DNA of 35,952 nt from Nitrospirae bacterium MYbin3 (GTDB lineage Bacteria > Nitrospirota > Thermodesulfovibrionia > Thermodesulfovibrionales > Dissulfurispiraceae), in the NCBI GenBank assembly GCA_002753335.1, contig PEAD01000029.1, positions 1 through 35,952 on the forward strand, in the 5' to 3' direction. The notes below the pieces were generated by a model, which was given only the letters and a program-made list of their open reading frames with translations, made no database searches and was not told where the DNA came from. The position numbers and the translations under genes were made by a program. Positions 6,482 through 24,701 of this stretch are shown in pieces (positions within the stretch are counted from its first letter, which is position 1; each line of letters starts with the position of its first letter).

Positions 6482-7039
6482 ATGAGATGCTTTATTGCGA
6501 TAAAAATCCCATCTTCAATAAAAGAGTCTATCGCAAAGCTTATTAATGCAATAACCACTAACGCTTCGGGCATCAAATTTGTGCCTTCAGAAAACATTCA
6601 CATCACTATGAAGTTTTTGGGCGAAGTCGATGAAAAAAAAGCGCAGGATGTTATTGCATCTCTAAAAGTTTTGTCCGCATCGCATTCCCCCTTCCCTCTC
6701 TAAATTAAGGGCACAGGCGTATTCCTGGACCCTAAACGCCCTAATGTGCTTTGGATCGGCGTTTCTGAATTAGCTAATCTTCAAGAATTACACAAATATA
6801 TAGAATCTTCTCTAGTCATGCTCGGATTCGAAAAAGAGGCCCGTAAATTCTCCCCTCACCTTACGCTAGGAAGAGTGAAAGACCAACGCAGCGCAGGTTC
6901 GGCAGTTAGGCAACTCTTGAAGCACAGCAGCGAAACATTCGGAAGCTTTGATGTCAAAGAGGTCTGTTTAATGCAAAGCGTCCTTAAACCTTCGGGTGCC
7001 GAATACTCTACAATAGAAACTTTCGGATTGGAAAAATGA
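6482..7039 (+). pseudogene. thpR: RNA 2',3'-cyclic phosphodiesterase (2H phosphoesterase, ThpR/LigT) interrupted by an in-frame TAA at 6701-6703
   Basis: ORFs 6482-6703 and 6746-7039 share one frame. Read-through gives MRCFIAI...HITMKFLG...PFPL*IKGTGVFLDPKRPNVLWIG...FSPHLTLGR...L..S.LKPSGAEY, with one HxT motif on each side of the stop. Confidence 0.85.
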
Positions 7040-12022: not shown

Positions 12023-13399
12023 GTGACAAAATTGAAGTATATTTATTATCTAATTTTTTGTGCAATTATAATCGCGTCTTCACCAGCCGTCTCGGTATCG
12101 GCTGAAGCTTCTAAACCCAAGACGGTCCTGAATCTTCAGGAATGCATAAAAAAAGCTGTGGAGATAAGCCCCGAAATTGGAGAAACCCGTTTTGAAGAAG
12201 ATGTCTATAAGGCAAAAAAAATGCAGGCCGACTCAGCCCTCTATCCGCAAATCGATATGCTTGCGATTACAGGCCCCTCGCCAAAAGCAAGGAGAGAACA
12301 GCTTAACCCAATAGACACAAGCTCTAAAACAAGCATCGGCGGCATATTCGGCAATGCCGAGGCTACGCTTATACAGCCGCTTTACACATTCGGCAAGATA
12401 AGCAGCTACAGGGAAGCAGCGGCAAGTGGTATTAAGGTTGCAAAAGCAGGCGTTGACAGGAAAACGTCAGAAATAGTTCTCAGGACAAAAGAACTTTATT
12501 TCGGGCTTCTGCTTGCCAGAGATTTGAGAAAGCTTATACTCGAGATTAAAGATGGCATCGTCAGCGCTATAGAGAAGGCAGAAAAGCAGATAGCGACAGG
12601 ATCGCCGGCAGCGGATGAGCTGAATCTTTTCAAACTGAACGCATTCTATGGAGAGGTTCAGAGAAACCTGAACGAGGCAGAAAAAGGCATTGCGTTGGCT
12701 AAAGACGCGCTCGCTACAAGCATGGGATTGCCTTTGAATGCTGATTTTGATATTGCGGATGATTCCCTCACCCCTCAGGACAGAACAGTTGATGATGTAT
12801 CCAGATACATTCAGCTCTCCCGAGAACTCAGACCTGAATTCCTTCAAATAAAAGAGGGGCTGATAGCAAAAAATGCCTTGGTTAATGTTGAAAAGAGCAA
12901 TCTTTATCCGATGGTCTTTGCCGGTTTGAAAGGCTCTGTTTCTGCTGCATCGAACAGGGATCGGATAAACAATCCTTATATCGATGATTATTTCAACCAT
13001 TCATACGGCGGCGCTTTCATGGGGCTGAAATGGGCTGTGGATTTCGGCATAACAAAAGGCAGAATTCAGGAATCGCTCGCAGAGTACCACAAGATTGCAG
13101 AAAAGAAAAAGTTTGCTGACGAAGCTATTCCTTTTCAGGTGAGAAAGTTTTACCTCGATTTCGAAGAGGCACGGAAAAATATATTCGAGACCGAGAAGGG
13201 TTATACAAACGCAAAAAAATGGCTTGTTGCAGCAATCGCCAACCTTGACCTCGGCATAGGAGATGCTAAGGATATGGCTGACGCGGCACTTGCTTACGCG
13301 ATGCTGAAAGCCAATAATCTTAAATCAATGTACAACCACAGGATAGCTTACGCAAATCTTTTGTATGCCTCTGGATTGGACCTAAAGGAATTAAAATAG
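12023..13399 (+). CDS. TolC-family outer membrane protein
   Basis: GTG start, signal peptide, L.LQECI..A...SP, QPLYTFGK, RPE, YP..F, duplicated OEP helical pattern. Confidence 0.85.
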   Translation: MTKLKYIYYLIFCAIIIASSPAVSVSAEASKPKTVLNLQECIKKAVEISPEIGETRFEEDVYKAKKMQADSALYPQIDMLAITGPSPKARREQLNPIDTSSKTSIGGIFGNAEATLIQPLYTFGKISSYREAAASGIKVAKAGVDRKTSEIVLRTKELYFGLLLARDLRKLILEIKDGIVSAIEKAEKQIATGSPAADELNLFKLNAFYGEVQRNLNEAEKGIALAKDALATSMGLPLNADFDIADDSLTPQDRTVDDVSRYIQLSRELRPEFLQIKEGLIAKNALVNVEKSNLYPMVFAGLKGSVSAASNRDRINNPYIDDYFNHSYGGAFMGLKWAVDFGITKGRIQESLAEYHKIAEKKKFADEAIPFQVRKFYLDFEEARKNIFETEKGYTNAKKWLVAAIANLDLGIGDAKDMADAALAYAMLKANNLKSMYNHRIAYANLLYASGLDLKELK

Positions 13400-13405
13400 G
13401 AGGGG

Positions 13406-14029
13406 ATGATGAAAACTTTGGTTTGTTTGTTGTCTGCAATATTTTTTCTGATATCAGGCTTTAATGCCCATGCCGGAGAACCGACCGATCAGATTCGGGT
13501 TACGGTTGATAAGGTTATCGATATTTTGAAGAACAAAGAGATGAAACGACCTGATAAAACGAGAGAAAGGCGTTCTGCCATTCGTAAGGTGGTTCTGGAA
13601 CGCTTTGATTTTGAGGAGATGGCAAAAAGGTCTCTCGCGCAAAACTGGAGCAAAAGAACACCTGAAGAGAAAAAGGAGTTCGTATCTTTATACACAGATC
13701 TGCTTGAACGGTCATACATAAAGAAAATAGAAAATTACAGCGATGAAAAGGTTGTTTATCTGGAAGAAAAAACCGACGGTGAAAATTCTATAGTAAAAAC
13801 TAAAATGATAACAAAGAACGGCACCGAGATTCCTGTAGATTACAAGCTCGCAAAACTGAACAGCAGATGGAATGTTTATGACATATCTGTGGAGGGTGTA
13901 AGTCTTGTCAATAATTACAGAAACCAGTTCAACAAGATAATCCGTTCGCATGTCAACGGCTATGCCGAGCTTTTAAAGATGATGCGCAGCAAGCAGGAAG
14001 ACGAGGCGTTCGAGGAAAAGAAAAAATAG
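13406..14029 (+). CDS. mlaC: MlaC/Ttg2D periplasmic phospholipid-binding protein
   Basis: Signal peptide; FDFEEMAKRSLA..W, EF..L...LL..SY, VDY.L, W.VYDI.VEGVSLV.NYR.QF. Confidence 0.9.
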   Translation: MMKTLVCLLSAIFFLISGFNAHAGEPTDQIRVTVDKVIDILKNKEMKRPDKTRERRSAIRKVVLERFDFEEMAKRSLAQNWSKRTPEEKKEFVSLYTDLLERSYIKKIENYSDEKVVYLEEKTDGENSIVKTKMITKNGTEIPVDYKLAKLNSRWNVYDISVEGVSLVNNYRNQFNKIIRSHVNGYAELLKMMRSKQEDEAFEEKKK

Positions 14030-14037
14030 CTTCCTGC

Positions 14038-14208
14038 ATGCAGATTAAATGCCCGCACTGCAAAAAGAAGACTACTTGGGAAGAAAACCCATGGAAGCCC
14101 TTTTGCTCCGAAAGATGCAAACTTATTGACCTCGGCAAATGGGCGATGGAAGAGTATAAGATACCTGCAAGAGATGATGAATCAGAAATCGAGGAGGAGA
14201 ATAAATGA
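14038..14208 (+). CDS. yacG: DNA gyrase inhibitor YacG
   Basis: Manual translation, 56 aa: MQIKCPHCKKKTTWEENPWKPFCSERCKLIDLGKWAMEEYKIPARDDESEIEEENK*. CPxC...PFCSxRCxxIDLGxW signature; stop overlaps the dapB start (ATGA). Not in the ORF track. Confidence 0.95.
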   Translation: MQIKCPHCKKKTTWEENPWKPFCSERCKLIDLGKWAMEEYKIPARDDESEIEEENK

Positions 14209-15008
14209 CAAAGATTATAGTGACAGGCGCTACCGGAAGAATGGGCAGCAGAATTGCGGCGCTTTCAAAAGAATATGCGGATATTAAACTGGCAGGTACG
14301 ACCGAGAGAAAAGGACATGTACTGCTCGGTAAAGACATAGGTGGAATTCTAGGCATAGGCGAAAACGGGATAAAACTAGTTGATAACCTTGGCGCGGTTA
14401 TAGAAGCCTGCGATGTCGTGATAGATTTCACATCCATTGCCTCCTCCCTTGAACACCTTAAAATAGCTGCCGCAAATAAAAAGGCGATGATAATTGGAAC
14501 AACAGGCTTTTCTAAAGATGAACTGGCAGAGGCAAAAAAAATCGCTGAAGGCATTCCCGTTGTAATAGCTCCGAATGTGAGTGTGGGAGTGAATCTTCTG
14601 CTGAAAGTATTGCAGGATATAGCGCGGGTTTTTGGCGATGACTACGACATCGAAATAGTTGAGTCACACCACAGGCTAAAAAAAGATGCACCGAGCGGGA
14701 CCGCAATAAAGATGGCTCAGGTAATAGCCGATGCTGTAAACAGAAATCTGGATGAAGTTGCGGTTTATGCCAGGAAAGGCATAATCGGTGAGAGAACAAA
14801 AAAAGAGATCGGTATCCAGACCGTCAGAGCGGGCGATATAGTCGGCGAACACACCGTGCTTTTCGGCGGTCTTGGCGAGAGGATAGAGATAACACATAAG
14901 GCATCAAGCAGAGACACTTTTGCCAGAGGAGCTTTAAAGGCCGCATCATGGATAGTTGGCCGGAAGCCCGGAATATATGATATGCAGGATGTCCTTGGCC
15001 TAAAGTAA
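14205..15008 (+). CDS. dapB: 4-hydroxy-tetrahydrodipicolinate reductase
   Basis: GATGRMG, DFT, IGTTG, E.HHR.K.DAPSGTA, R.GDIVGEH, FA.GA. Confidence 0.97.
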   Translation: MTKIIVTGATGRMGSRIAALSKEYADIKLAGTTERKGHVLLGKDIGGILGIGENGIKLVDNLGAVIEACDVVIDFTSIASSLEHLKIAAANKKAMIIGTTGFSKDELAEAKKIAEGIPVVIAPNVSVGVNLLLKVLQDIARVFGDDYDIEIVESHHRLKKDAPSGTAIKMAQVIADAVNRNLDEVAVYARKGIIGERTKKEIGIQTVRAGDIVGEHTVLFGGLGERIEITHKASSRDTFARGALKAASWIVGRKPGIYDMQDVLGLK

Positions 15009-15017
15009 TAAACCGCC

Positions 15018-16583
15018 ATGGCGGAGAAAATTATAATCTACGGCCTTTCGAGCGTAGGATTAAGAGTTGCAGAGTTCCTTAAACAGACAGGAACAGAGCC
15101 TTTAGTTGCAACCTATCCTGCATCGCCCTATCTATCAAAAATCAAAAACTGCTGCACAAATGTCATAGAGGCCGACCTTTCTAATTTTGAACTCTTACGA
15201 AAAATTGAGATCTCGGATGCCTCTGCCATAATACTTCCGTCGAGCGATGAGCAGTTCAACCTGCAGGCTGCACTTCATGCTGTGGAGATTAATCCTAAAA
15301 TTAGTGTGGTTCTGAGGCTGTTCAACACAAAACTTGCAGCAAAGCTTGAAGAAAACATGCAGAACTTCAAAGTTATCAGTGCATCTCAGGTTGCATCCGC
15401 TGCATTCGCAACAGCAGCTCTACTCGAAAAGCCTATTCTTTCGCTAAAGGAGTCAGATAAAATTTTCAGCTTTTTCAGGGTTCCCTGCTCACTCTTTGCA
15501 CAAAAAACAGTGAACGAAACAGAAAAAGAACACAGCCTGGATATTGTTGCGATAAACAAAATGGTCTTTCCAGCAAAAAACGAAAAAATACCTGACAAAG
15601 GTTCTTTATGCATTTTTTCTGAGTTTAAAAATGGCTTTAGGTTCGAAAAACAGCCATGTCCTGAAAAAAACAATACGCCTACTAAAGCCATAAAAAAAGA
15701 AACCATACCCTTATCAAAAAGGCTTCTGGGAATGGACAAGATTTTACGAAATACATTGACAGCTCTCATTTCTGTCATTATTTTTTGCATAGCTTACTTT
15801 TACAGCTTCGAAAACCTCTCTTTCATTAATGCCGTTTATTTTGTAGTAACAGTCCTTACCAGCACAGGCTTCGGAGATATCAGCCTGAAAGATTCTTCCA
15901 CACTTTCTAAGATTATCGGCATTATGCTTATGCTTTCAGGAATATCACTTTTTACCATACTCTTTGCAATGATAACCGACACCTTAATAAAAAAGAGAAT
16001 GGATCTTATGCTCGGCCGTAAGCGAAGCAGGCTTTCAGGGCATATTGTCTTATGCGGAACAGGAGATGTCGGAATTCGTATTCTCGAAGACCTTCTGGCG
16101 CTCGGAGAAAAAGTTGTGGTGGTAGAAAAAAATCCCGAAAATAAATTTTTTGCTGCCGTTAAAGAGATGAATATCCCTTTTATAATATCTGATGCCACTC
16201 AGGAAAAAACTCTTTCCGACGCAAACATACCGGGCGCAAAAGCCATAATATGCGCAATGGACAACGACATAATAAATCTCGAAGTGGGTCTTAACGCAAG
16301 GGCGTTGAACAGAAACATACGGGTGGTGCTGAGAATATTCGATAAAGACTTCGCGTCACGCATAGAAAAATGTTTTGATATACATTACGCCCTCAGCTCT
16401 TCTCATATTGCGGCTCCTGCTTTTGCTTCGGCCGCTCAAGGAACAGGGGTGGTTAATACCCTCGATATCGAAGGTGAGCTGCTCTTTCTGGTTCAAGAAA
16501 AATTGGATGGCATAAAAGACGAACTGAAGACGCTTTTTGCCCTAAATGCCGATAATAAAGTATTTTATCTCAGAAAGGGCTAA
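15018..16583 (+). CDS. Potassium channel family protein with two RCK-N (TrkA-N) domains flanking a 2-TM pore
   Basis: N-terminal IIIYGLSSVG Rossmann; pore A.YF...T.TSTGFGD; second RCK HIVLCG.GDVG.RI; both RCKs end VVLR(L/I)F. Confidence 0.88.
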   Translation: MAEKIIIYGLSSVGLRVAEFLKQTGTEPLVATYPASPYLSKIKNCCTNVIEADLSNFELLRKIEISDASAIILPSSDEQFNLQAALHAVEINPKISVVLRLFNTKLAAKLEENMQNFKVISASQVASAAFATAALLEKPILSLKESDKIFSFFRVPCSLFAQKTVNETEKEHSLDIVAINKMVFPAKNEKIPDKGSLCIFSEFKNGFRFEKQPCPEKNNTPTKAIKKETIPLSKRLLGMDKILRNTLTALISVIIFCIAYFYSFENLSFINAVYFVVTVLTSTGFGDISLKDSSTLSKIIGIMLMLSGISLFTILFAMITDTLIKKRMDLMLGRKRSRLSGHIVLCGTGDVGIRILEDLLALGEKVVVVEKNPENKFFAAVKEMNIPFIISDATQEKTLSDANIPGAKAIICAMDNDIINLEVGLNARALNRNIRVVLRIFDKDFASRIEKCFDIHYALSSSHIAAPAFASAAQGTGVVNTLDIEGELLFLVQEKLDGIKDELKTLFALNADNKVFYLRKG

Positions 16584-16593
16584 AGGTGAATAT

Positions 16594-17568
16594 ATGATAA
16601 AAGTTGTTTTTGCTCTTGCATTTTATTCGATTATGCTATTTTTCAACGCAGATGTTTCAGCCTCTCTTTACAACAGTGAATACGAGGATAAATTCGAGCC
16701 TGCATCCCTATTTTGTCTTATAATTTTGATATACATAGCAGGTTACGCAATTGTCAGAATAAAAAAAGCCAAGGCGTCAGTTTTAGTTGACAACGGTGAA
16801 CCAACTCCTGCCGAAATAGCTTATCTCAACAAAGGAAGGCGTCATGCTATCTGCGTCTCTTTGTTCGACTTAATCAGAAGGGGCGTCCTCGAAATAAAAT
16901 CAGGCAACGCACTCAAATCAACTAAAAAAGATGACCGCCTCCTGTCCTACGAAATAATGCTGGTAGGTTTCTTTAGAAACGAAAAAAAGCTATCAAACTT
17001 GCTTAAAAACAAAGATGCTCTTAAAAACTACGACCTAGGCATCATAAATTCACTTTTGAGAAAAGGCTGCCTGAAAGATGCTGAAGAAGAGCGCTCGGTC
17101 GGAAATGGGTTAATCAGAAATTCTTTATTTTCACTGCTTTTGCTTCTCGCATTCATGTTCAATTCGGATGTATTATTTATAAAAGGAAATCCGTTTTTTT
17201 ATGCAGCTGTGGGCGTTAGTATTATTGCGCTCATTTCGGGAGCAGTTCTAAGGAAAGCTCATATACATTCAAAACGCGGCAATGAGTTTTTAAATAAATA
17301 CACAGACAAGATAAAAACTTCAGCCGACTATGTTTCGGACAAGAATAGTTATGACCCGTCTCTTAGCTATGGGGTTGCTGTACTCGGTTTCGGAATACTT
17401 GCAGGCTCGGTTTTTGATGAATTTCTGAATTATGTTTCATACACCCGGTCGAGGTTCCCTGATTCCAGTTCTGGTTGTTCGTCATGCTCCACCACAGGCG
17501 GAGATGGTGGAAGCAGCGGCGACGGCGGTGGAAGTGGTGGTTGCGGAGGCTGTGGCGGCGGGGATTAA
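16594..17568 (+). CDS. TIGR04222-like membrane protein with low-complexity Gly/Ser/Cys C-terminal tail
   Basis: P.P.EIAYL.KG.....SL..L.RRG.L motif after a TM helix; two further TM helices; VAVLG..IL segment; tail SSSGCSSCSTTGGDGGSSGDGGGSGGCGGCGGGD*. Start placed at ATG 16594 (AAAGGTGA upstream) rather than 16546. Family recognised by eye. Confidence 0.75.
   Translation: MIKVVFALAFYSIMLFFNADVSASLYNSEYEDKFEPASLFCLIILIYIAGYAIVRIKKAKASVLVDNGEPTPAEIAYLNKGRRHAICVSLFDLIRRGVLEIKSGNALKSTKKDDRLLSYEIMLVGFFRNEKKLSNLLKNKDALKNYDLGIINSLLRKGCLKDAEEERSVGNGLIRNSLFSLLLLLAFMFNSDVLFIKGNPFFYAAVGVSIIALISGAVLRKAHIHSKRGNEFLNKYTDKIKTSADYVSDKNSYDPSLSYGVAVLGFGILAGSVFDEFLNYVSYTRSRFPDSSSGCSSCSTTGGDGGSSGDGGGSGGCGGCGGGD
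17461..17565 (+). repeat. Low-complexity GGN-rich coding tract (Gly/Ser/Cys tail)
   Basis: Imperfect repeats such as ggtggaagcagcggc / ggtggaagtggtggt encoding GG(D/S/C) units; visibly more G-rich than the rest of the gene. Confidence 0.7.
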
Positions 17569-17571
17569 TCG

Positions 17572-18564
17572 ATGCTGAAGGTATCCGGTTTTAATGACTG
17601 GTTCTACCTCCAATGGCATATCACAGACTCCTGCAACCTGAGCTGCTCGCATTGCTACAATGCCTCTGTAAAAGCTGAGCCTGACATAACCCGCCTCTCT
17701 TCTGTTCTGGACAATTTCGTAAGTTTTCTTGGCCGCAATCGCCTAAAAGGCAGAATACATCTCTGCGGAGGAGAACCGTTTCGATCTAAACACCTTTTTT
17801 TTCTTCTCTCTGAAGCGTTAAAAAACTCTATGCCGGTCAGAATACTTTCGAATGGAACCTTGATAACACAAGCCATAGCAAAAAACCTTAAGAGCCATTC
17901 CTGCGAAACAGTTCAGATATCGGTGGAAGGCAGCGAGTCCATACATGATTCATTGCGTGGGCCTTCAAGCTTCTGTGATGCTATAAACGGCGCAGCACTC
18001 TTGAAAGAAAATAAGGTGCCGGTCACTTTTATGATGACCGTGTCAAAAAAAAATGCGGCATATATCGAAGACGCGGCAAAGCTTTCCGAAATTCATGCAA
18101 AACGCTTAGCATTCTCGAGGCTCGTGCCTATAGGTCTTGGGGCATCTATGATAAAAGATATGCTGACCCCAGTCGAAACCAAAAAAATCTTTAGAAGTTT
18201 TCATTCGCTCAAGAAAAAAAATAAATTTGAGATTCCTGTGAGAGACCCTCTGTGGCATGCCTATTTCAACAAATGTAATCCACATCTTATCAGCGGATGT
18301 TCAATAGGCTACAATGGTATTTGCGTGGACACGGACGGCTCTGTTTATCCATGCCGCCGCCTGCCCATAGTTATCGGCAATGCTTATAAAGATGATCTAA
18401 ATGATATTTGGAACTCACCACTGCTTGAAACATTGAGAGACAGGGATAAATTAAAAGGCAAATGCCGAAAATGCAGGCTGAGGTGGCAATGCGGAGGATG
18501 CAGGGCGGTTGCTAATGCAGTATCAGGAGATTGCTTGGCCGAAGACCCTCAGTGTTTTATGTAG
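17572..18564 (+). CDS. Radical SAM/SPASM domain protein (putative peptide/protein maturase)
   Basis: LQWHITDSCNLSCSHC (CxxxCxxC), GGEP, SNG, Q.S.EG, HD..RG; C-terminal C-x12-G-x4-C ... CxxC-x5-CxxC-x17-C SPASM array. No N-terminal extension that could hold an RRE. Confidence 0.92.
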   Translation: MLKVSGFNDWFYLQWHITDSCNLSCSHCYNASVKAEPDITRLSSVLDNFVSFLGRNRLKGRIHLCGGEPFRSKHLFFLLSEALKNSMPVRILSNGTLITQAIAKNLKSHSCETVQISVEGSESIHDSLRGPSSFCDAINGAALLKENKVPVTFMMTVSKKNAAYIEDAAKLSEIHAKRLAFSRLVPIGLGASMIKDMLTPVETKKIFRSFHSLKKKNKFEIPVRDPLWHAYFNKCNPHLISGCSIGYNGICVDTDGSVYPCRRLPIVIGNAYKDDLNDIWNSPLLETLRDRDKLKGKCRKCRLRWQCGGCRAVANAVSGDCLAEDPQCFM

Positions 18565-18584
18565 CCATGAATTCGTTTTATACC

Positions 18585-18616
18585 TTCATATTTTATTCAT
18601 AAATCTCTGCTAACAT
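18585..18616 (+). promoter_or_regulatory. Candidate regulator box (direct repeat) and extended -10 upstream of the efflux operon
   Basis: TTCATA at 18585 and 18596 (11 bp period), then TGcTAACAT at 18608-18616; GGAGG at 18635-18639. Confidence 0.4.
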
Positions 18617-18645
18617 TAAATCAAATAAATTAATGGAGGTTGCTG

Positions 18646-19035
18646 ATGAAAAAATTTGTATTCATAATTATTGCGGTACTGCTGGTTGCAGGAACCGCTT
18701 TTGCAAAGGACTTTGAAGTAAAGAAGAAAGCAGGAGATTATGATGTCGTAGTTAAAATTGACAAAAATCCTCCTGTGGTCGGAACCAATAATGTAACGGC
18801 AGAGATTAAAGATGCAGCAGGAAAGCCTGTTACAGATGCCAAGGTGGTGGTGGATTATTCAATGCCTGCTATGCCGGGTATGCCGCCAATGAATTACAAA
18901 GCAAACGCCAAATTAAGCGGTGAAGTTTATAAGGCAACAATGAACCTTTCTATGGGCGGGCCATGGAACATAGCCATAAAAATATCAAAAGGCGGAAAGA
19001 CTTCTTCCGCTAAATTTAATATAGACGTGCAGTAG
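18646..19035 (+). CDS. Secreted FixH/YtkA-like protein with Met-rich motif
   Basis: Signal peptide (AFA); G.N...I.D..GKPVTDA.V...YSMPAMPGMPPM...Y...LSM.G.W. ATG 18646 fits the GGAGG spacing better than TTG 18640. Confidence 0.8.
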   Translation: MKKFVFIIIAVLLVAGTAFAKDFEVKKKAGDYDVVVKIDKNPPVVGTNNVTAEIKDAAGKPVTDAKVVVDYSMPAMPGMPPMNYKANAKLSGEVYKATMNLSMGGPWNIAIKISKGGKTSSAKFNIDVQ

Positions 19036-19039
19036 ATAA

Positions 19040-20350
19040 ATGATGCTTCCCCCCACAAAGCAGATGAAACGCAGTCCCCTCCCCAATCTGCGTTTCGTCT
19101 GCTCTTTTATTTTTATTTTTTTCTTAATTGCATCTGTTGTTTCAGCAGACGAATTAAAACTACAAGAACTTATAAATGATGCCCTCTCTAAAAATCCGGA
19201 GATATTGGCTTACCAGGCCAGATTAGCCGGGGCCGCCTTTAAGATACCTCAGGCAGAAGCCCTGCCCGACCCGATGCTGTCTTTCGGTTATCAGAATGAA
19301 GGGTTCAAAAGATATACCTACGGTTATGAGCAGGGAGCCCAGTGGATGCTTTCGGCATCTCAAACCTACCCTTATCCGGGCAAAATTCCTCTTAGAACAG
19401 ACATCGCCTCAAAAGACAGAGAAGCGCTGGAGAGAAGCCTGAAAGCGGTCCGTTTAAAAACTATCGTGCGTGTCAAAGAACTCTATGCGGATATTTTCCT
19501 TGCTTATAAAAATCTGGACATAATTAAGGACAGAGCTGCTTTAATAGCACGAATCGAGGATGCAGCTCTCGCACGCTACTCCTCGGGCGTCTCAGAAGTT
19601 CAGGATGCGGTGACTGCGCAAACCGAAAAATATATGCTGCTCGAACGAGAAGAGATGCTCAGACAAAAAATAAATGCGCTCGAAGGCATGATTAATGCGG
19701 TTTCCGGCCGTGATATAAGCGCCCCTATAGGCAAACCCGGAGAATATAACGTATCTCAATACTCAAAAACGCTAGACGAAATAATAAAAACTGCCTATTC
19801 TAATTCACCAGAAATCAAATCTAGAGAGAGTTCGATTTCTGTGTCCGAGAAAAAAGTGGAATTGGCAAAAAAGGACTTCTACCCTGACTTCACTCTCAAC
19901 GCAGGCTATGCCACAAGACGGGGAGTGTTTAAAGATATGTGGAATCTTACAACAACCATAAATGTCCCTCTTTATCATGAAAAAAAGCAAAAACAGGCTG
20001 TCAACGAGGCTGAAGCGGCAACACGAGAGAACAGATACGAACTTGAAGCCCTGAAATTCATGCTATCGTCTTCTATAAGGGAGAACCATGCGATGATAAC
20101 CTCGGCAGAAAAGCTTATGGAACTCTATAAAAAGGGGCTAATACCTAAAGCGTATCAGGACTTTGACTTGGCGCTGGCGGGCTATGTTTCTGGCAAAGGG
20201 GATGCCTCATCTATAATAAGCAGGCTTAAGTCCCTTATCGATTATGAAACTCTTTACTGGAACCAGTTTATCGAGAGAGAAAAAGCGATTGCACGGATAG
20301 AAGCGGTCTCGGGCATATCAGACATGGAATCGAAGGGGAATCAAAAATGA
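19040..20350 (+). CDS. TolC-family outer membrane factor of heavy-metal RND system (CusC-like)
   Basis: L.ELI..AL..NPEI, LPDP.L, Q..P.PGK, YPDF.L, N.PL; position before adaptor and RND genes. Exact start uncertain. Confidence 0.88.
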   Translation: MMLPPTKQMKRSPLPNLRFVCSFIFIFFLIASVVSADELKLQELINDALSKNPEILAYQARLAGAAFKIPQAEALPDPMLSFGYQNEGFKRYTYGYEQGAQWMLSASQTYPYPGKIPLRTDIASKDREALERSLKAVRLKTIVRVKELYADIFLAYKNLDIIKDRAALIARIEDAALARYSSGVSEVQDAVTAQTEKYMLLEREEMLRQKINALEGMINAVSGRDISAPIGKPGEYNVSQYSKTLDEIIKTAYSNSPEIKSRESSISVSEKKVELAKKDFYPDFTLNAGYATRRGVFKDMWNLTTTINVPLYHEKKQKQAVNEAEAATRENRYELEALKFMLSSSIRENHAMITSAEKLMELYKKGLIPKAYQDFDLALAGYVSGKGDASSIISRLKSLIDYETLYWNQFIEREKAIARIEAVSGISDMESKGNQK

Positions 20351-21528
20351 GAAAAAATATAGTGATATTAATTGCTGGAGCATTTCTGGCAGCAGGCTTG
20401 TCGTTCTTTCTTACGAAATCGAATCTGCTTAAAAACGTCTATAAGAATACTGATACAGCATCACACCAAAGCAATACCACACAGGCCAATGACAATACAT
20501 CTTCATCGGAAGCGCCTTTGGTAGAGATATCTGCAGATAAACAGCAGTTGATAGGCGTAAGGACTTATGTAGCCAATATGCAGCCGATGGGCAAAACCAT
20601 CAGGTCGGTGGGCAAAATCGAATACGATGAGAGGAAACTTTCGACCGTCAATTCAAAACTGGAAGGATGGATAGAGTCCCTGCATGTGGATTACACCGGC
20701 AGGCTGGTAAAAAAAGGAGAGCCCCTTGCCGAGATTTACAGCCCTGAACTGATGGCCACACAGCAGGAATATCTCAATGTGCTGAAATGGACTTCACAAA
20801 AACGTGATGAAGGCATCGCTAAGATGCTGGCAAAAGATGCTGACGCAATCCTTGAGGCGGCCAGGAACCGCTTGAAGCTCAAGGATATCAGCGATGAGCA
20901 GATCAAAAACATAGAGACCACAGGCAAGCCTATCAGAACTTTTACGGTTTATAGCCCCTCCAGCGGATATGTGGTGCAAAAAAACGCATTGCGGGGCATG
21001 AAGATAACAGCAGGCGAAAAACTGTTTGATGTTGCAGACATATCGACTCTCTGGATAGTTGCGGATATTTACGAATATGAACTACCTATGATAAGAATCG
21101 GACAGACCGCACAAATAAGCATAAACTCTCTGCCGGGCAAGATTTTCAGCTCAAAAATAGATTATGTTTATCCGTCTCTTTCTGGTGACACAAGAACAGC
21201 AAAAGTAAGATTCACTATACCGAATATTTCAGAAGCTCTCAAGCCACAGATGTTCACGAACATTGAGATCAAGATCGAAATGGGGAAGCGGCTACTCGTT
21301 CCTGATGATGCTGTCATAGACACCGGTGTGCGGCAGATTATCTATGTTGATAAAGGCGATGGCTATTTTGAACCTCGCGAAGTCACCATAGGCCTTAAAT
21401 CAGACGGCATGACCGAAATCACAAGGGGTTTGACATCGGGAGAAAAAGTTGCATCTTCCGCAAACTTCCTTATAGATTCAGAGGCTCAACTCAAAGGCGT
21501 TAAACCGCTCGGCAGCCACAAGCACTGA
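20347..21528 (+). CDS. RND periplasmic adaptor subunit (CusB-like)
   Basis: GWIE.L....G..VKKGEPL..IYSPEL..Q.EYL, LW..A..YE, LKP.MF, F.PREV..G, FLIDSE. Confidence 0.93.
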   Translation: MRKNIVILIAGAFLAAGLSFFLTKSNLLKNVYKNTDTASHQSNTTQANDNTSSSEAPLVEISADKQQLIGVRTYVANMQPMGKTIRSVGKIEYDERKLSTVNSKLEGWIESLHVDYTGRLVKKGEPLAEIYSPELMATQQEYLNVLKWTSQKRDEGIAKMLAKDADAILEAARNRLKLKDISDEQIKNIETTGKPIRTFTVYSPSSGYVVQKNALRGMKITAGEKLFDVADISTLWIVADIYEYELPMIRIGQTAQISINSLPGKIFSSKIDYVYPSLSGDTRTAKVRFTIPNISEALKPQMFTNIEIKIEMGKRLLVPDDAVIDTGVRQIIYVDKGDGYFEPREVTIGLKSDGMTEITRGLTSGEKVASSANFLIDSEAQLKGVKPLGSHKH

Positions 21529-21536
21529 CAACAGTT

Positions 21537-24500
21537 ATGATCGCAAGAATAATCGAGTTCAGCGCCAAGAACAAGTTTATCGTTTTTCTGCTCGTATCAT
21601 TTCTTACGCTCTGGGGTTGGTGGGCGCTAAAGCAGACGCCTCTTGATGCAATTCCCGACCTGAGCGATACACAAGTCATCATCTACACAGAATGGGCAGG
21701 CAGAAGCCCTGACCTTGTTGAAGACCAGATAACCTACCCTATAACCTCAACCCTTTTAGCCGCGCCAAAAGTTCAGGTAGTACGCGGATTCTCTTTCTTG
21801 GGCAGTTCCTTCATCTATGTTATTTTTGAGGAGGGAACAAATATTTACTGGGCAAGAAGCCGCGTGCTCGAATATCTTCAGGCGGTAAAAAGCAAGATAC
21901 CTGCTGATGTGAACCCAGTGCTCGGCCCTGATGCAACAAGCGTTGGCTGGGGTTTTTCTTATGCGCTCATTGATGAGACAGGACAGCACGATCTGTCACA
22001 GCTGCGTTCGCTGCAGGATTACAATGTCAAGCTGGCGCTCGAAAGCGTGCCCGGAGTTTCTCAGGTGGCGAGCATAGGCGGTTTTGTAAAGCAATACCAG
22101 GTGACCATAGACCCGAACAGACTGCTCGCTTACAATCTATCGCTTCCGAAAGTTATGGATGCGATAAGAAAAAGCAATCGAGACGTCGAAGGCCGGGTGC
22201 TTGAGTTTTCTGGCATCGAATATATGGTCAGAGGCAGAGGCTACATAAAGAATATTAAAGACCTCGAATACATACCTGTTGCTACAAACAATGCCGGAAC
22301 CCCTGTGCTGCTTAGGGATATTGCGAATATCCAGCTTGGCCCAGAAATAAGGCGAGGCATAGCTGACATTGATGGTAAAGGCGAAGTGGCAGGCGGCATA
22401 GTTGTTGTTCGATTTGGTGAAAATGTGCTCGACGTAATCGAAAGGGTCAAAGAGAGAATAAAAAAAGACATATCGCCAAGCCTGCCTAAAGGAGTGCATG
22501 TAGTAACAACCTATGACAGATCTGATTTAATACTCAACTCGATCGGCACACTTAAGGAAGAGATAATCAAGCTGTCTCTGGCGGTTGGCGCGGTATGCAT
22601 TGTGTTTCTCTTCCATCTTCCTAGCGCACTTGTTGTAATACTCACACTGCCTATAGCGATAATCATTTCCTTTATCTGCATGTATTACTTAGGCGTAACC
22701 TCAAATATTATGAGCCTTAGCGGAATAGCCATCGCTGTTGGTGCGATGGTGGACGCCTCTATAATAATGGTCGAAAATGCCCACAAAAAGCTTGAAGAAT
22801 GGGAGGCAGGAGGCAGGCAGGGCAGCCGCACTGATGTGATAATCGAGGCTGCCAAAGAGGTGGGCCCTTCCCTCTTCTTTTCGCTTTTAGTTATCACCGT
22901 AGGATTTCTGCCTGTGTTCACGCTTCAGGCTCAGGCCGGAAGACTATTCAAGCCTCTCGCTTTTACAAAAACCTTCGCGATGCTGTTTTCGTCATTCTTG
23001 GCCGTGACTCTTACACCGGTATTGATGACGCTTCTGATTAAGGGCAAAATTCATTCAGAAGAAAAAAATCCGATAAGCTTAATTCTGCATAAAATTTACG
23101 AGCCGGTTGCAAAACTATCATTAAGATTCAAATGGAGCGTCATAATTATCGCGATTGTAATAATGGCCGCCACTGTATATCCGTTCATGAAGTTAGGCTC
23201 CGAGTTCATGCCTCCGCTCTATGAAGGCACGCTCTTCTATATGCCAGTAACGGTGCCTGCAGCCTCTATTTCTGAGGCATCCAAGCTGCTCCAGCTTCAG
23301 GACAAGCTGCTAAAAAAGATACCCGAAGTTTCTCAAGTCTTCGGCAAAGCAGGCCGAGCCGAGACAGCAACCGACCCAGCACCGCTCGAAATGTTCGAGA
23401 CCGTTATAAACCTTAAGCCAGAATCCCAATGGCGTCCAGGCACGACCATCGAATCACTGAAATCAGAGATGAATGACGCACTGACAATACCGGGCGTGGC
23501 CAATTCATTCACTATGCCTATAAAAGCCAGAATTGATATGCTTTCTACCGGCATAAGAACGCCTGTCGGAATAAAAGTTTTGGGGGCAGACCTAAATGTC
23601 ATAGAAAAGATAGGTCTTGATGTTGAGAATATTGTAAAAGATATTCCGGGCACAAGAAGCGCCTATGCAGAAAGAGTGACAACAGGATATTTCCTCGACT
23701 TTTCTGTAAAACGTGATGAAGCGGCGAGGTATGGATTGACTGTCGACGATGTTCAGGAAATCATACAGGCAGCCGTAGGAGGAATGAATCTGACCATCAC
23801 CGTTGAAGGCAGGGAGAGGTACCCTGTAAATGTGCGTTATTCGAGGGAGCTCAGAAATGATATCGAGCGCCTAAAAAGAATCCCTGTGCCTGTCATGGGA
23901 GCTCAACAGGTTGTTATGGGTGGAAATGGGCAGACCTCTCCGGGGCAGTTGCTTCAGGTGCCATTAAGCGAGCTTGCAGAAATAAAAATTGTAAAAGGCC
24001 CCACAGGCATTAAAAGCGAGGAGGGTCTTCTCACCTCGTATGTATATATCGATTTTGCAGGCAGAGATGTTGGCGGTTATGTGGAAGAGGCCAAGAAAAA
24101 AGTCTCTGCACTGAATATACCGAGCGGCTACCGCCTTGAATGGAGCGGCGAGTATGAATATCTCGTAAAAACCCATGAACGGCTGAAGCTAGTGATACCT
24201 TTAACTCTTGCGGTAATTTTTGTGCTCATTTACCTGAACACAAAATCTGTTACAAAAACCTTTATAGTCCTGCTTGCGGTGCCGTTCTCGCTCGTAGGCT
24301 CCTTCTGGTTCTTGTACATTCTCAACTACAACATGAGCATAGCGGTGTGGGTCGGAATGATCGCCCTTGCAGGCCTCGACGCAGAAACAGGCGTGGTGAT
24401 GCTTCTCTATCTTGACCTTGCTTATGAAAAATGGAAAAAAGAGGGGAAACTGAACACCATTAGCGACCTCAGAGAAGCGGTAATGTACGGCGCCGTAAAG

Positions 24501-24701
24501 AGGATAAGACCCAAAATTATGACAGTGAGCGTTATACTTGCAGGCTTGATACCGATAATGTACAGCCACGGCGCTGGTTCGGATGTCATGAAAAGAATAG
24601 CAGCGCCGATGATAGGCGGCGTAGTGACCTCCACTATGCTCGAACTCATCATATATCCTGCAATCTATATGATCTGGAAAAGCAGGGAGTTAAAGGATTA
24701 G
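21537..24701 (+). CDS. cusA: CusA-type heavy-metal (Cu+/Ag+) efflux RND permease
   Basis: LDAIPDLSD.QVI, LGPDAT.VGW, GAMVDA, R.RPKIMT; Met residues at the CusA metal-site positions in EFMPPL, LEMFET, IDMLSTG. Confidence 0.93.
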   Translation: MIARIIEFSAKNKFIVFLLVSFLTLWGWWALKQTPLDAIPDLSDTQVIIYTEWAGRSPDLVEDQITYPITSTLLAAPKVQVVRGFSFLGSSFIYVIFEEGTNIYWARSRVLEYLQAVKSKIPADVNPVLGPDATSVGWGFSYALIDETGQHDLSQLRSLQDYNVKLALESVPGVSQVASIGGFVKQYQVTIDPNRLLAYNLSLPKVMDAIRKSNRDVEGRVLEFSGIEYMVRGRGYIKNIKDLEYIPVATNNAGTPVLLRDIANIQLGPEIRRGIADIDGKGEVAGGIVVVRFGENVLDVIERVKERIKKDISPSLPKGVHVVTTYDRSDLILNSIGTLKEEIIKLSLAVGAVCIVFLFHLPSALVVILTLPIAIIISFICMYYLGVTSNIMSLSGIAIAVGAMVDASIIMVENAHKKLEEWEAGGRQGSRTDVIIEAAKEVGPSLFFSLLVITVGFLPVFTLQAQAGRLFKPLAFTKTFAMLFSSFLAVTLTPVLMTLLIKGKIHSEEKNPISLILHKIYEPVAKLSLRFKWSVIIIAIVIMAATVYPFMKLGSEFMPPLYEGTLFYMPVTVPAASISEASKLLQLQDKLLKKIPEVSQVFGKAGRAETATDPAPLEMFETVINLKPESQWRPGTTIESLKSEMNDALTIPGVANSFTMPIKARIDMLSTGIRTPVGIKVLGADLNVIEKIGLDVENIVKDIPGTRSAYAERVTTGYFLDFSVKRDEAARYGLTVDDVQEIIQAAVGGMNLTITVEGRERYPVNVRYSRELRNDIERLKRIPVPVMGAQQVVMGGNGQTSPGQLLQVPLSELAEIKIVKGPTGIKSEEGLLTSYVYIDFAGRDVGGYVEEAKKKVSALNIPSGYRLEWSGEYEYLVKTHERLKLVIPLTLAVIFVLIYLNTKSVTKTFIVLLAVPFSLVGSFWFLYILNYNMSIAVWVGMIALAGLDAETGVVMLLYLDLAYEKWKKEGKLNTISDLREAVMYGAVKRIRPKIMTVSVILAGLIPIMYSHGAGSDVMKRIAAPMIGGVVTSTMLELIIYPAIYMIWKSRELKD

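Follow-up and report, generated by a model that had tools for sequence, protein, structure and literature searches.

What does a radical S-adenosylmethionine (SAM) enzyme do beside a membrane protein that ends in a cysteine-rich tail? The question is raised by a two-gene locus of Nitrospirae bacterium MYbin3 on contig PEAD01000029.1, whose whole analysed stretch of 35,952 nt is called the window below. The tailed protein (hereafter the carrier) stops with TAA and, after 3 nt, the ATG of a 330-aa radical SAM/SPASM enzyme follows at 17572, in the arrangement described by the first-pass annotation of this DNA. The locus is read here, with a probability of roughly 0.55, as a two-gene post-translational modification cassette in which the enzyme oxidises the tail Cys of the membrane protein to 5-thiooxazole; that the tail is the enzyme's substrate at all is very probable, as judged from the surveys below. 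L and G numbers denote loci and genomes, C numbers contigs of the organism's own genome; no conclusion draws on G791, an unpublished genome.

Co-occurrence of the tail with two kinds of enzyme

In a hidden Markov model (HMM) search, the carrier passes TIGR04222 with 46.3 bits against a cut-off of 43, the family to which it had been assigned earlier from its motifs, and a domain search adds a weak match to DUF2207_C. As expected of TIGR04222, its chain crosses several transmembrane (TM) segments and closes with a Cys-containing stretch rich in Ser and Gly. The four tail Cys (residues 295, 298, 317 and 320) are spaced 3, 19 and 3 residues apart, Gly precedes three of them, and two Gly-Cys-Gly units stand at the tail end; the TAA stop leaves no room for selenocysteine read-through. 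Selenocysteine was also considered for the tails in general and rejected: 14 of 48 carriers end in TGA, yet read-through yields no more Gly/Cys sequence. A filter for Gly/Ser/Cys-rich ends with at least two Cys left only 3 of the 25,451 open reading frames (ORFs) of at least 30 aa in the genome, so the tail is not a chance composition. The three are the carrier and two zinc-ribbon-like ORFs of 67-71 aa. One of these, a 67-aa ORF at C1:62208-62411 (+), has a Gly/Ser tail with Cys-x-x-Cys pairs and might be a substrate in trans or an ordinary FmdB-type protein.

Usual accessories of a ribosomally synthesised and post-translationally modified peptide (RiPP) were looked for and not found, which agrees with what had been noticed before. 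[quoted passage not shown] No Cys-rich free precursor was present among the 71 ORFs of at least 30 aa at 13000-22000, and a promoter/terminator scan gave nothing usable.

On the enzyme side, a search with a 75-sequence alignment yielded 512 relatives in genome contigs, the best 80 of which were taken as 79 loci. A tail gene was present in 42 of these, 39 by the filter and three (L037, L039 and L047) by inspection, with L039 and L047 having a tail fragment at the contig edge; the other 37 gave no tail matches. A first, quick tree combined the 79 loci with the enzymes of the window and of four relatives. The window falls there into a starred clade of 40 rows, and all 40 have a tail gene adjacent or one gene off (38 by filter or inspection, plus L037 and the contig-end fragment of L047). 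The survey of neighbours that the first-pass annotation had proposed thus upheld the pairing. The clade spans about 17 phylum labels, as taken from record titles, and 16 of its rows are from Nitrospirota and not independent. The Bacillota label of L028 is doubtful, as the sampled group overlapped the Actinomycetota sample. A second tail clade contains 8 rows (support 100/99), and an archaeal/Zixibacteria branch has tails in 3/3 rows. In L038, L039 and L040, labelled Thorarchaeota or Zixibacteria, the carrier of the cassette is of a different kind and about 500 aa long.

A 25-row sister clade has no membrane tails. Instead, 20 of its rows have a PqqD cluster, and a free peptide ending in CxxCxxCHxC was found in 22 of the 23 rows examined (two identical duplicates left out). 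This cluster (L045, L049, L062, L080 and others from many phyla) combines the radical SAM/SPASM enzyme and PqqD with a 41-55-aa CxxCxxCHxC peptide, proteins of a prenyltransferase/cyclase fold, asparagine-synthase-like proteins and often a metallo-beta-lactamase-fold protein of more than 1000 aa. With no NCBIfam match for the three peptides scanned, it looks like an undescribed RiPP family. Three other archaeal-labelled relatives (L069, L090 and L043) have small upstream Cys-rich peptides of other patterns.

On the carrier side, TIGR04222 matched in 15 of 301 genomes of the own phylum, with an adjacent radical SAM gene in 13. Of the two exceptions, one is a contig ending within the tail and the other a protein with a Cys-free tail and no radical SAM gene. 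Among 251 genomes of the Desulfobacterota sample, a radical SAM gene accompanied 4/4 matches over the cut-off. Twenty wider TIGR04222 regions were then compared (9 of 10 over-cut-off matches of the Actinomycetota group, 7/7 of the Pseudomonadota group, 4/4 of the Planctomycetota group and one of the Myxococcota group): an MNIO occurred in 6, a radical SAM enzyme in 5 and both in none. The Actinomycetota-group regions had an MNIO in 5/8 and no radical SAM gene; those of the Pseudomonadota group had a radical SAM gene in 4/7, the remaining 3 being cut by contig ends; in the Planctomycetota group, one had an MNIO and one was cut; the Myxococcota-group region has a radical SAM gene. MNIO enzymes thus take the same gene position in other bacteria, most directly in two loci with the same order and a swapped enzyme, namely NTase-carrier-MNIO in L196 and NTase-carrier-SbtM-like in L197. 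Among 14 other genomes with a cassette of the window clade, the second clade or the short SbtM type described below, an MNIO was found in one (G700, beside a DUF2063 gene); the free-peptide genome G699 was left out of this count.

The alternation bears on a rival reading, in which the tail stays covalently unchanged. It would then serve as a native Cys-x-x-Cys ligand of a metal or Fe-S cluster, or would tether to the membrane, or regulate, an enzyme with another substrate, which could be the channel, the NTase or a small molecule. Cys-x-x-Cys pairs do bind metals unmodified, and some tails have no enzyme nearby. On the other hand, the place beside the tail is taken by one or the other of two peptide-modifying enzyme families that are unrelated, and no other gene is common to the clade; 10 of the 79 loci carry an NTase-like gene, to which nothing in the own genome matched. 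An unmodified tail is accordingly considered improbable.

Enzyme family and the proposed product

The enzyme passes Radical_SAM PF04055 (66.5 bits against 29.5) and SPASM PF13186 (49.9 against 21.5). Of the full SPASM array ascribed to it earlier, the domain itself stood, but the conserved Cys number seven, not eight; the eighth is variable in the window clade, and C235 could be an eighth ligand. No named NCBIfam family is passed. The best match is SbtM (184.9 bits, cut-off 350), beginning at profile position 199, followed by ACGX (176.7/400), AhbD (161/500), TIGR04053 (144/395) and GeoRSP (138/400); a search for true ACGX enzymes found 0 of 151 above the cut-off. Profiles of sactipeptide and ranthipeptide maturases (AlbA, SkfB, StsB and PapB) give 69-98 bits against cut-offs of 300-850, with StsB at 98, PapB at 90 and AlbA at 72. 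The nearest named homologues are from Nitrospirota. In a second tree, one group (98/97) takes in every tail clade together with SbtM, the free-peptide clade and three rows of no assigned family, and AhbD-like and MftC enzymes fall outside, so the clustering with haem or cofactor enzymes that had been named as a possible objection was not seen; the own genome carries a separate AhbD-like gene on C59. This tree contained no thioether formers, whose exclusion comes from the HMM scores alone, and no PqqE outgroup was found for it.

A pointer to the chemistry comes from true SbtM orthologues that stand beside the same tails. In G074, G083, G065 and G653, an SbtM-family enzyme without the N-terminal domain lies directly 3' of a TIGR04222 tail gene. 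Two that were scored reached 538 and 530 bits (cut-off 350). Identity to full SbtM is 58-59% for three of them, and the three placed in the tree are nested in the SbtM clade at 100/100. The SbtA precursor had no match in these four genomes, whereas the control G548 was positive. Among 80 of the 350 SbtM-like metagenome loci found, 67 are full-length, 12 lack the N-terminal domain and one is undetermined; a tail gene lies within 3.5 kb in 8 of the 12 short ones. Compared with DUF2063, the SbtM N-terminal domain gave no more than an E value of 0.13 in one of four comparisons. The idea that an MNIO partner is encoded upstream of the tail operon in L212 was discarded, the gene there having no similarity to a DUF2063 protein.

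Within GGUG, it is the Gly-Cys site that SbtM turns into a thio(seleno)oxazole (PMC9204691, PMC11002830). Because true short SbtM enzymes and MNIOs partner the same tails, thiooxazole is favoured over thioether, and parsimony favours one product for one substrate. In the proposed mechanism, the window enzyme would need neither an RRE nor a cleavable leader and would recognise the Gly/Ser tail by itself, with its Cys-x-x-Cys pairs, while the membrane protein would keep this tail on the inner side of the membrane. Each tail Cys would be oxidised in the manner of SbtM, with hydrogen abstraction from the Cys beta-carbon, two SAM consumed per Cys and a loss of 4 Da, to give 5-thiooxazole. The product would be a series of heterocycles with thiols, tethered to the membrane and capable of binding Cu and other soft metals, and the cassette would be an oxygen-independent counterpart of the MNIO enzymes. 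For a window enzyme that is not itself SbtM, 5-thiooxazole is, by analogy, somewhat the better bet. Thiooxazole peptides made by MNIOs bind copper (PMC12452194, PMC12668002), and metal binding by the modified tail is put forward as a weak suggestion. The readout suggested earlier, a shift of -2 Da with lost Cys alkylation, would miss this product: the thiooxazole made by SbtM is described as lighter by 4 Da, absorbing at 304 nm and still alkylated at its thiol by iodoacetamide (PMC9204691).

Cys-to-carbon thioether rings, either sactionine bonds to a Gly/Ser alpha-carbon or bonds to a Ser beta-carbon, were the product that the first-pass annotation assumed by default, and they would require only a different outcome from the same enzyme and substrate. 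Seven conserved SPASM Cys may leave one site of the first auxiliary cluster open; the tail has regular Cys-x-x-Cys repeats; and the PqqD and free CxxCxxCHxC peptides of the sister clade form a classical RiPP layout. However, the thioether-forming families score about half of the 185 bits of SbtM, MNIO and true SbtM enzymes accompany the same tails and the same third gene, and the tail Cys spacing varies between 3, 4 and 5. The default is therefore not supported, and thioether rings are regarded as unlikely, though a serious competitor. The enzyme might also alter tail Cys or Ser otherwise, by an oxidation to aldehyde or formylglycine like that of the anaerobic sulfatase-maturating enzyme (anSME), by epimerisation or by desulfuration. 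The window clade is chemically uncharacterised, and the first step of SbtM is said to resemble anSME thiol oxidation (PMC9204691), but the anSME profile scores the enzyme at only 65 bits and neither a sulfatase nor an epimerase recurs in the neighbour clusters, which leaves such reactions as poor candidates.

Several observations weigh against an SbtM-like cassette. The enzyme is 29% identical to SbtM, and its score (185 vs 350) has ACGX (177) and AhbD (161) close behind; in the tree, the window clade is not sister to SbtM, with the order of sub-clades left unresolved. An eighth SPASM Cys, four residues before the first, is present in 32/32 SbtM-type enzymes, whereas 28 of 75 window-clade sequences have no extra Cys, and the seven-Cys layout is typical of thioether formers. 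Four of the 12 short SbtM loci are without a nearby tail, and in 4 of the 8 positive ones the tail is on the opposite strand (two of these being near-copies). No TIGR04222 gene accompanied any of the 67 full-length SbtM loci, of which only 39 had at least 2.1 kb upstream. Two Planctomycetota-group carriers with Cys tails have neither enzyme within 4 kb. A copper link through the downstream YtkA and CusCBA genes (see below) was rejected, as CusA/B/C occurred in 0 of 288 loci and YtkA only at the window locus. For the MNIO systems themselves, the modification of TIGR04222 tails is given as unknown, and the tail is predicted to be periplasmic, by Antoine et al. (PMC12452194).

Architecture of the carrier and neighbouring genes

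The features of the locus are collected in Table 1. The carrier is a deleted form: about 167 codons, corresponding to an extracytoplasmic DUF2207_N-like domain, are gone in frame after residue 38. Both closest orthologues have 490 aa, and the window N-terminus aligns with theirs. The identical 324-aa protein is recorded on a second, longer contig (59,948 nt), and the one sequencing run found covers only short pieces beyond 18300. That the system is real elsewhere and the window copy is decaying after this deletion would fit the length of the two orthologues, but the deletion keeps the reading frame and has left the tail and every catalytic Cys in place. Absence of the domain is also natural in many carriers, and a single related genus has both short and long ones (321 aa in G039 vs 493-498 aa in G051 and G180). 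Decay of the window copy is therefore very improbable. The cassette at L013:7020-8977 (G037), with a radical SAM gene truncated before the last Cys cluster, a partial carrier and a duplicated OsmC-like fragment, appears scrambled, through an assembly error or decay.

Table 1. Features of the carrier-enzyme locus (positions in the window).
Feature	Position	Strand	Basis or remark
RCK (TrkA_N)/Ion_trans_2 potassium-channel gene, possible operon member	15018..16583	+	ends 10 nt 5' of the carrier
TIGR04222/DUF2207_C-type membrane protein, proposed substrate carrier	16594..17568	+	324 aa; HMM scores; nearest ESM Atlas clusters TIGR04222/DUF2207
Probable Sec signal peptide, remnant of the full-length form	16594..16662	+	approximately residues 1-23; hydropathy peak at residues 1-19, cleavage site by eye
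TM1, followed by a basic stretch	16699..16755	+	residues 36-54; following domain taken as inside
In-frame deletion junction	16700..16712	+	after residue 38; global alignments to the G001 orthologue and P0122
TM2-TM3 hairpin, followed by 6 Lys/Arg	17125..17250	+	residues 178-196 and 201-219
Helix H4, moderately hydrophobic, probably not membrane-spanning	17359..17415	+	residues 256-274; rough insertion energies
Gly/Ser/Asp tail with two Cys-x-x-Cys pairs, proposed modified core	17464..17565	+	C295, C298, C317, C320
Radical SAM/SPASM enzyme without RRE, proposed maturase	17572..18564	+	330 aa; HMM scores and tree
CxxxCxxC radical SAM cluster motif	17632..17655	+	C21, C25, C28
SPASM domain, seven conserved Cys (243, 261, 298, 301, 307, 310, 328)	18298..18555	+	all 75 aligned clade sequences

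The protein body had been thought to act as a leader as well as an anchor. Carriers of the window clade range from 53 to about 500 residues and have different bodies beside the same enzyme clade: TIGR04222 proteins with or without the DUF2207_N-like domain, single-pass proteins with a DUF2207_N-like domain only, and a 53-aa ORF, merely a helix plus tail, with a clear ribosome-binding site. With partners so diverse, about 167 residues lost from the window copy, and only the tail and a membrane anchor in common, the body is probably an anchor and not a conserved leader. Mini-carriers of 53-86 aa, found at L212:2772-3311 (-), in L213 and at L081:5826-5987 (+), are reduced to a Cys-x-x-Cys tail behind a hydrophobic helix and basic residues and would be the simplest assay substrates; in L212 and L213, a GluR0-like channel gene lies 3' of the mini-carrier.

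Single-pass carriers have mostly basic residues past the helix. On a rough insertion-energy scale, 10 of 27 homologues have an H4 at or above +3 and 2 have one below 0; the helix is marginal in Nitrospirota. At L211:4543-7167 (-), a TIGR04222 tail carrier is fused in frame to an RCK/Ion_trans_2 channel whose sequence is 29% identical to window 15018-16583; the fusion, seen on a single contig with a lost stop being possible, faces a short SbtM gene. Because of the basic residues after single-pass helices, the poor H4 and the L211 fusion, the tail is likely to lie on the cytoplasmic side. A tail that is exported could be modified beforehand.

No third gene is universal across the loci. Of 17 Nitrospirota loci, 7 have an ion-channel gene directly upstream: the window, L014, L024 and G180 carry an RCK channel, whereas the product is GLIC-like in L011, L012 and L027 (L011 was tested, best E value 2e-4). 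An obligate link to the potassium channel was rejected, as the channel is beside the cassette in 2 of the 3 genomes carrying it (201 searched) and not in G082. Directly downstream in the window, on the same strand (18640-24701), lie a YtkA-like protein and a heavy-metal resistance-nodulation-division (RND) system of the CusCBA type. Operons resembling envelope-stress systems surround the cassette in L031 (SPFH/band 7) and L081 (two PspA and spermidine-synthase-like genes). A role in the handling of metals or envelope stress is a lead rather than a result. Elsewhere in the window, 6746-7039 encodes a 97-aa fragment of a LigT-like 2'-5' RNA ligase/phosphoesterase.

A broader idea is held only tentatively and is on balance doubtful: at least three enzyme lineages, namely MNIO oxidases, short SbtM orthologues and uncharacterised radical SAM clades, including that of the window, would converge on one product, a poly-thiooxazole tail that needs no leader, is tethered to the membrane and lies in the cytoplasm. 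Attached to various membrane bodies in bacteria and Asgard archaea, this tail would serve as a copper or redox sensor or buffer together with neighbouring ion channels and envelope-stress proteins.

Relation to known systems

The cassette is real and widespread, pointing to RiPP-type Cys modification of a membrane protein tail, and is apparently undescribed. No description of the radical SAM-tail pairing was found in the literature on TIGR04222, SbtM and thiooxazole, DUF2207 with radical SAM, and the tails, a coverage with most subscription journals outside it. In the main text of PMC12452194, radical SAM is mentioned only in the references, and SPASM is absent from the supplement text searched. 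According to the same source, one third of the genomes with TIGR04222 are without an MNIO, the modification being unknown, and the cassette offers an answer to this published question of what becomes of the tails in MNIO-less genomes. Its chemistry is directly testable with a short synthetic tail and the stand-alone 330-aa enzyme, for which the short SbtM orthologues would be a near-characterised positive control. If the proposal is true, integral membrane proteins of many phyla receive RiPP-type heterocycles by a route independent of oxygen and from an enzyme that works without a leader, which would be useful for engineering metal-binding tags.

Among known systems, the putative substrates of MNIO (DUF692/PF05114) described by Antoine et al. 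(Microb Genom 2025, PMC12452194) belong to the same carrier family and have the same Cys/Gly/Ser tail; here, the partner is a radical SAM/SPASM enzyme, the own genome has no MNIO, and a cytoplasmic tail is favoured over the periplasmic one predicted there. The SbtM/SbtA pair (TIGR04082/TIGR04081; PMC9204691, PMC11002830) shares with the window the best-scoring family, the broad radical SAM/SPASM group, the Gly-Cys motif and, in its short orthologues, the tails themselves. The window enzyme differs in scoring below the cut-off, in its separate starred clade and in lacking the N-terminal domain of about 195 aa and the eighth SPASM Cys, and its substrate would be a membrane protein tail with Cys instead of a selenocysteine peptide. 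Bufferins and captophorins, the copper chelators in which an MNIO makes 5-thiooxazole (PMC12668002, PMC11626156), resemble the proposed product and metal-binding role; they are small peptides that are exported, and the iron enzyme that makes them depends on oxygen and has a DUF2063 partner, whereas here the tail is tethered and the enzyme is of the radical SAM type.

By score and tree, the closest relatives of the enzyme are the ACGX radical SAM enzymes (TIGR04340) and the PqqD/CxxCxxCHxC sister clade, which likewise target Cys repeats. Their targets are free peptides, the sister clade has an RRE protein, and the window enzyme reaches 177 bits against the ACGX cut-off of 400. ACGX is not known to have a characterised chemistry. 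Radical SAM enzymes acting on whole proteins exist in anSME and QhpD, whose substrates are soluble and folded, and the window enzyme has a low anSME score; they share with the proposed cassette the modification of a protein rather than a peptide.

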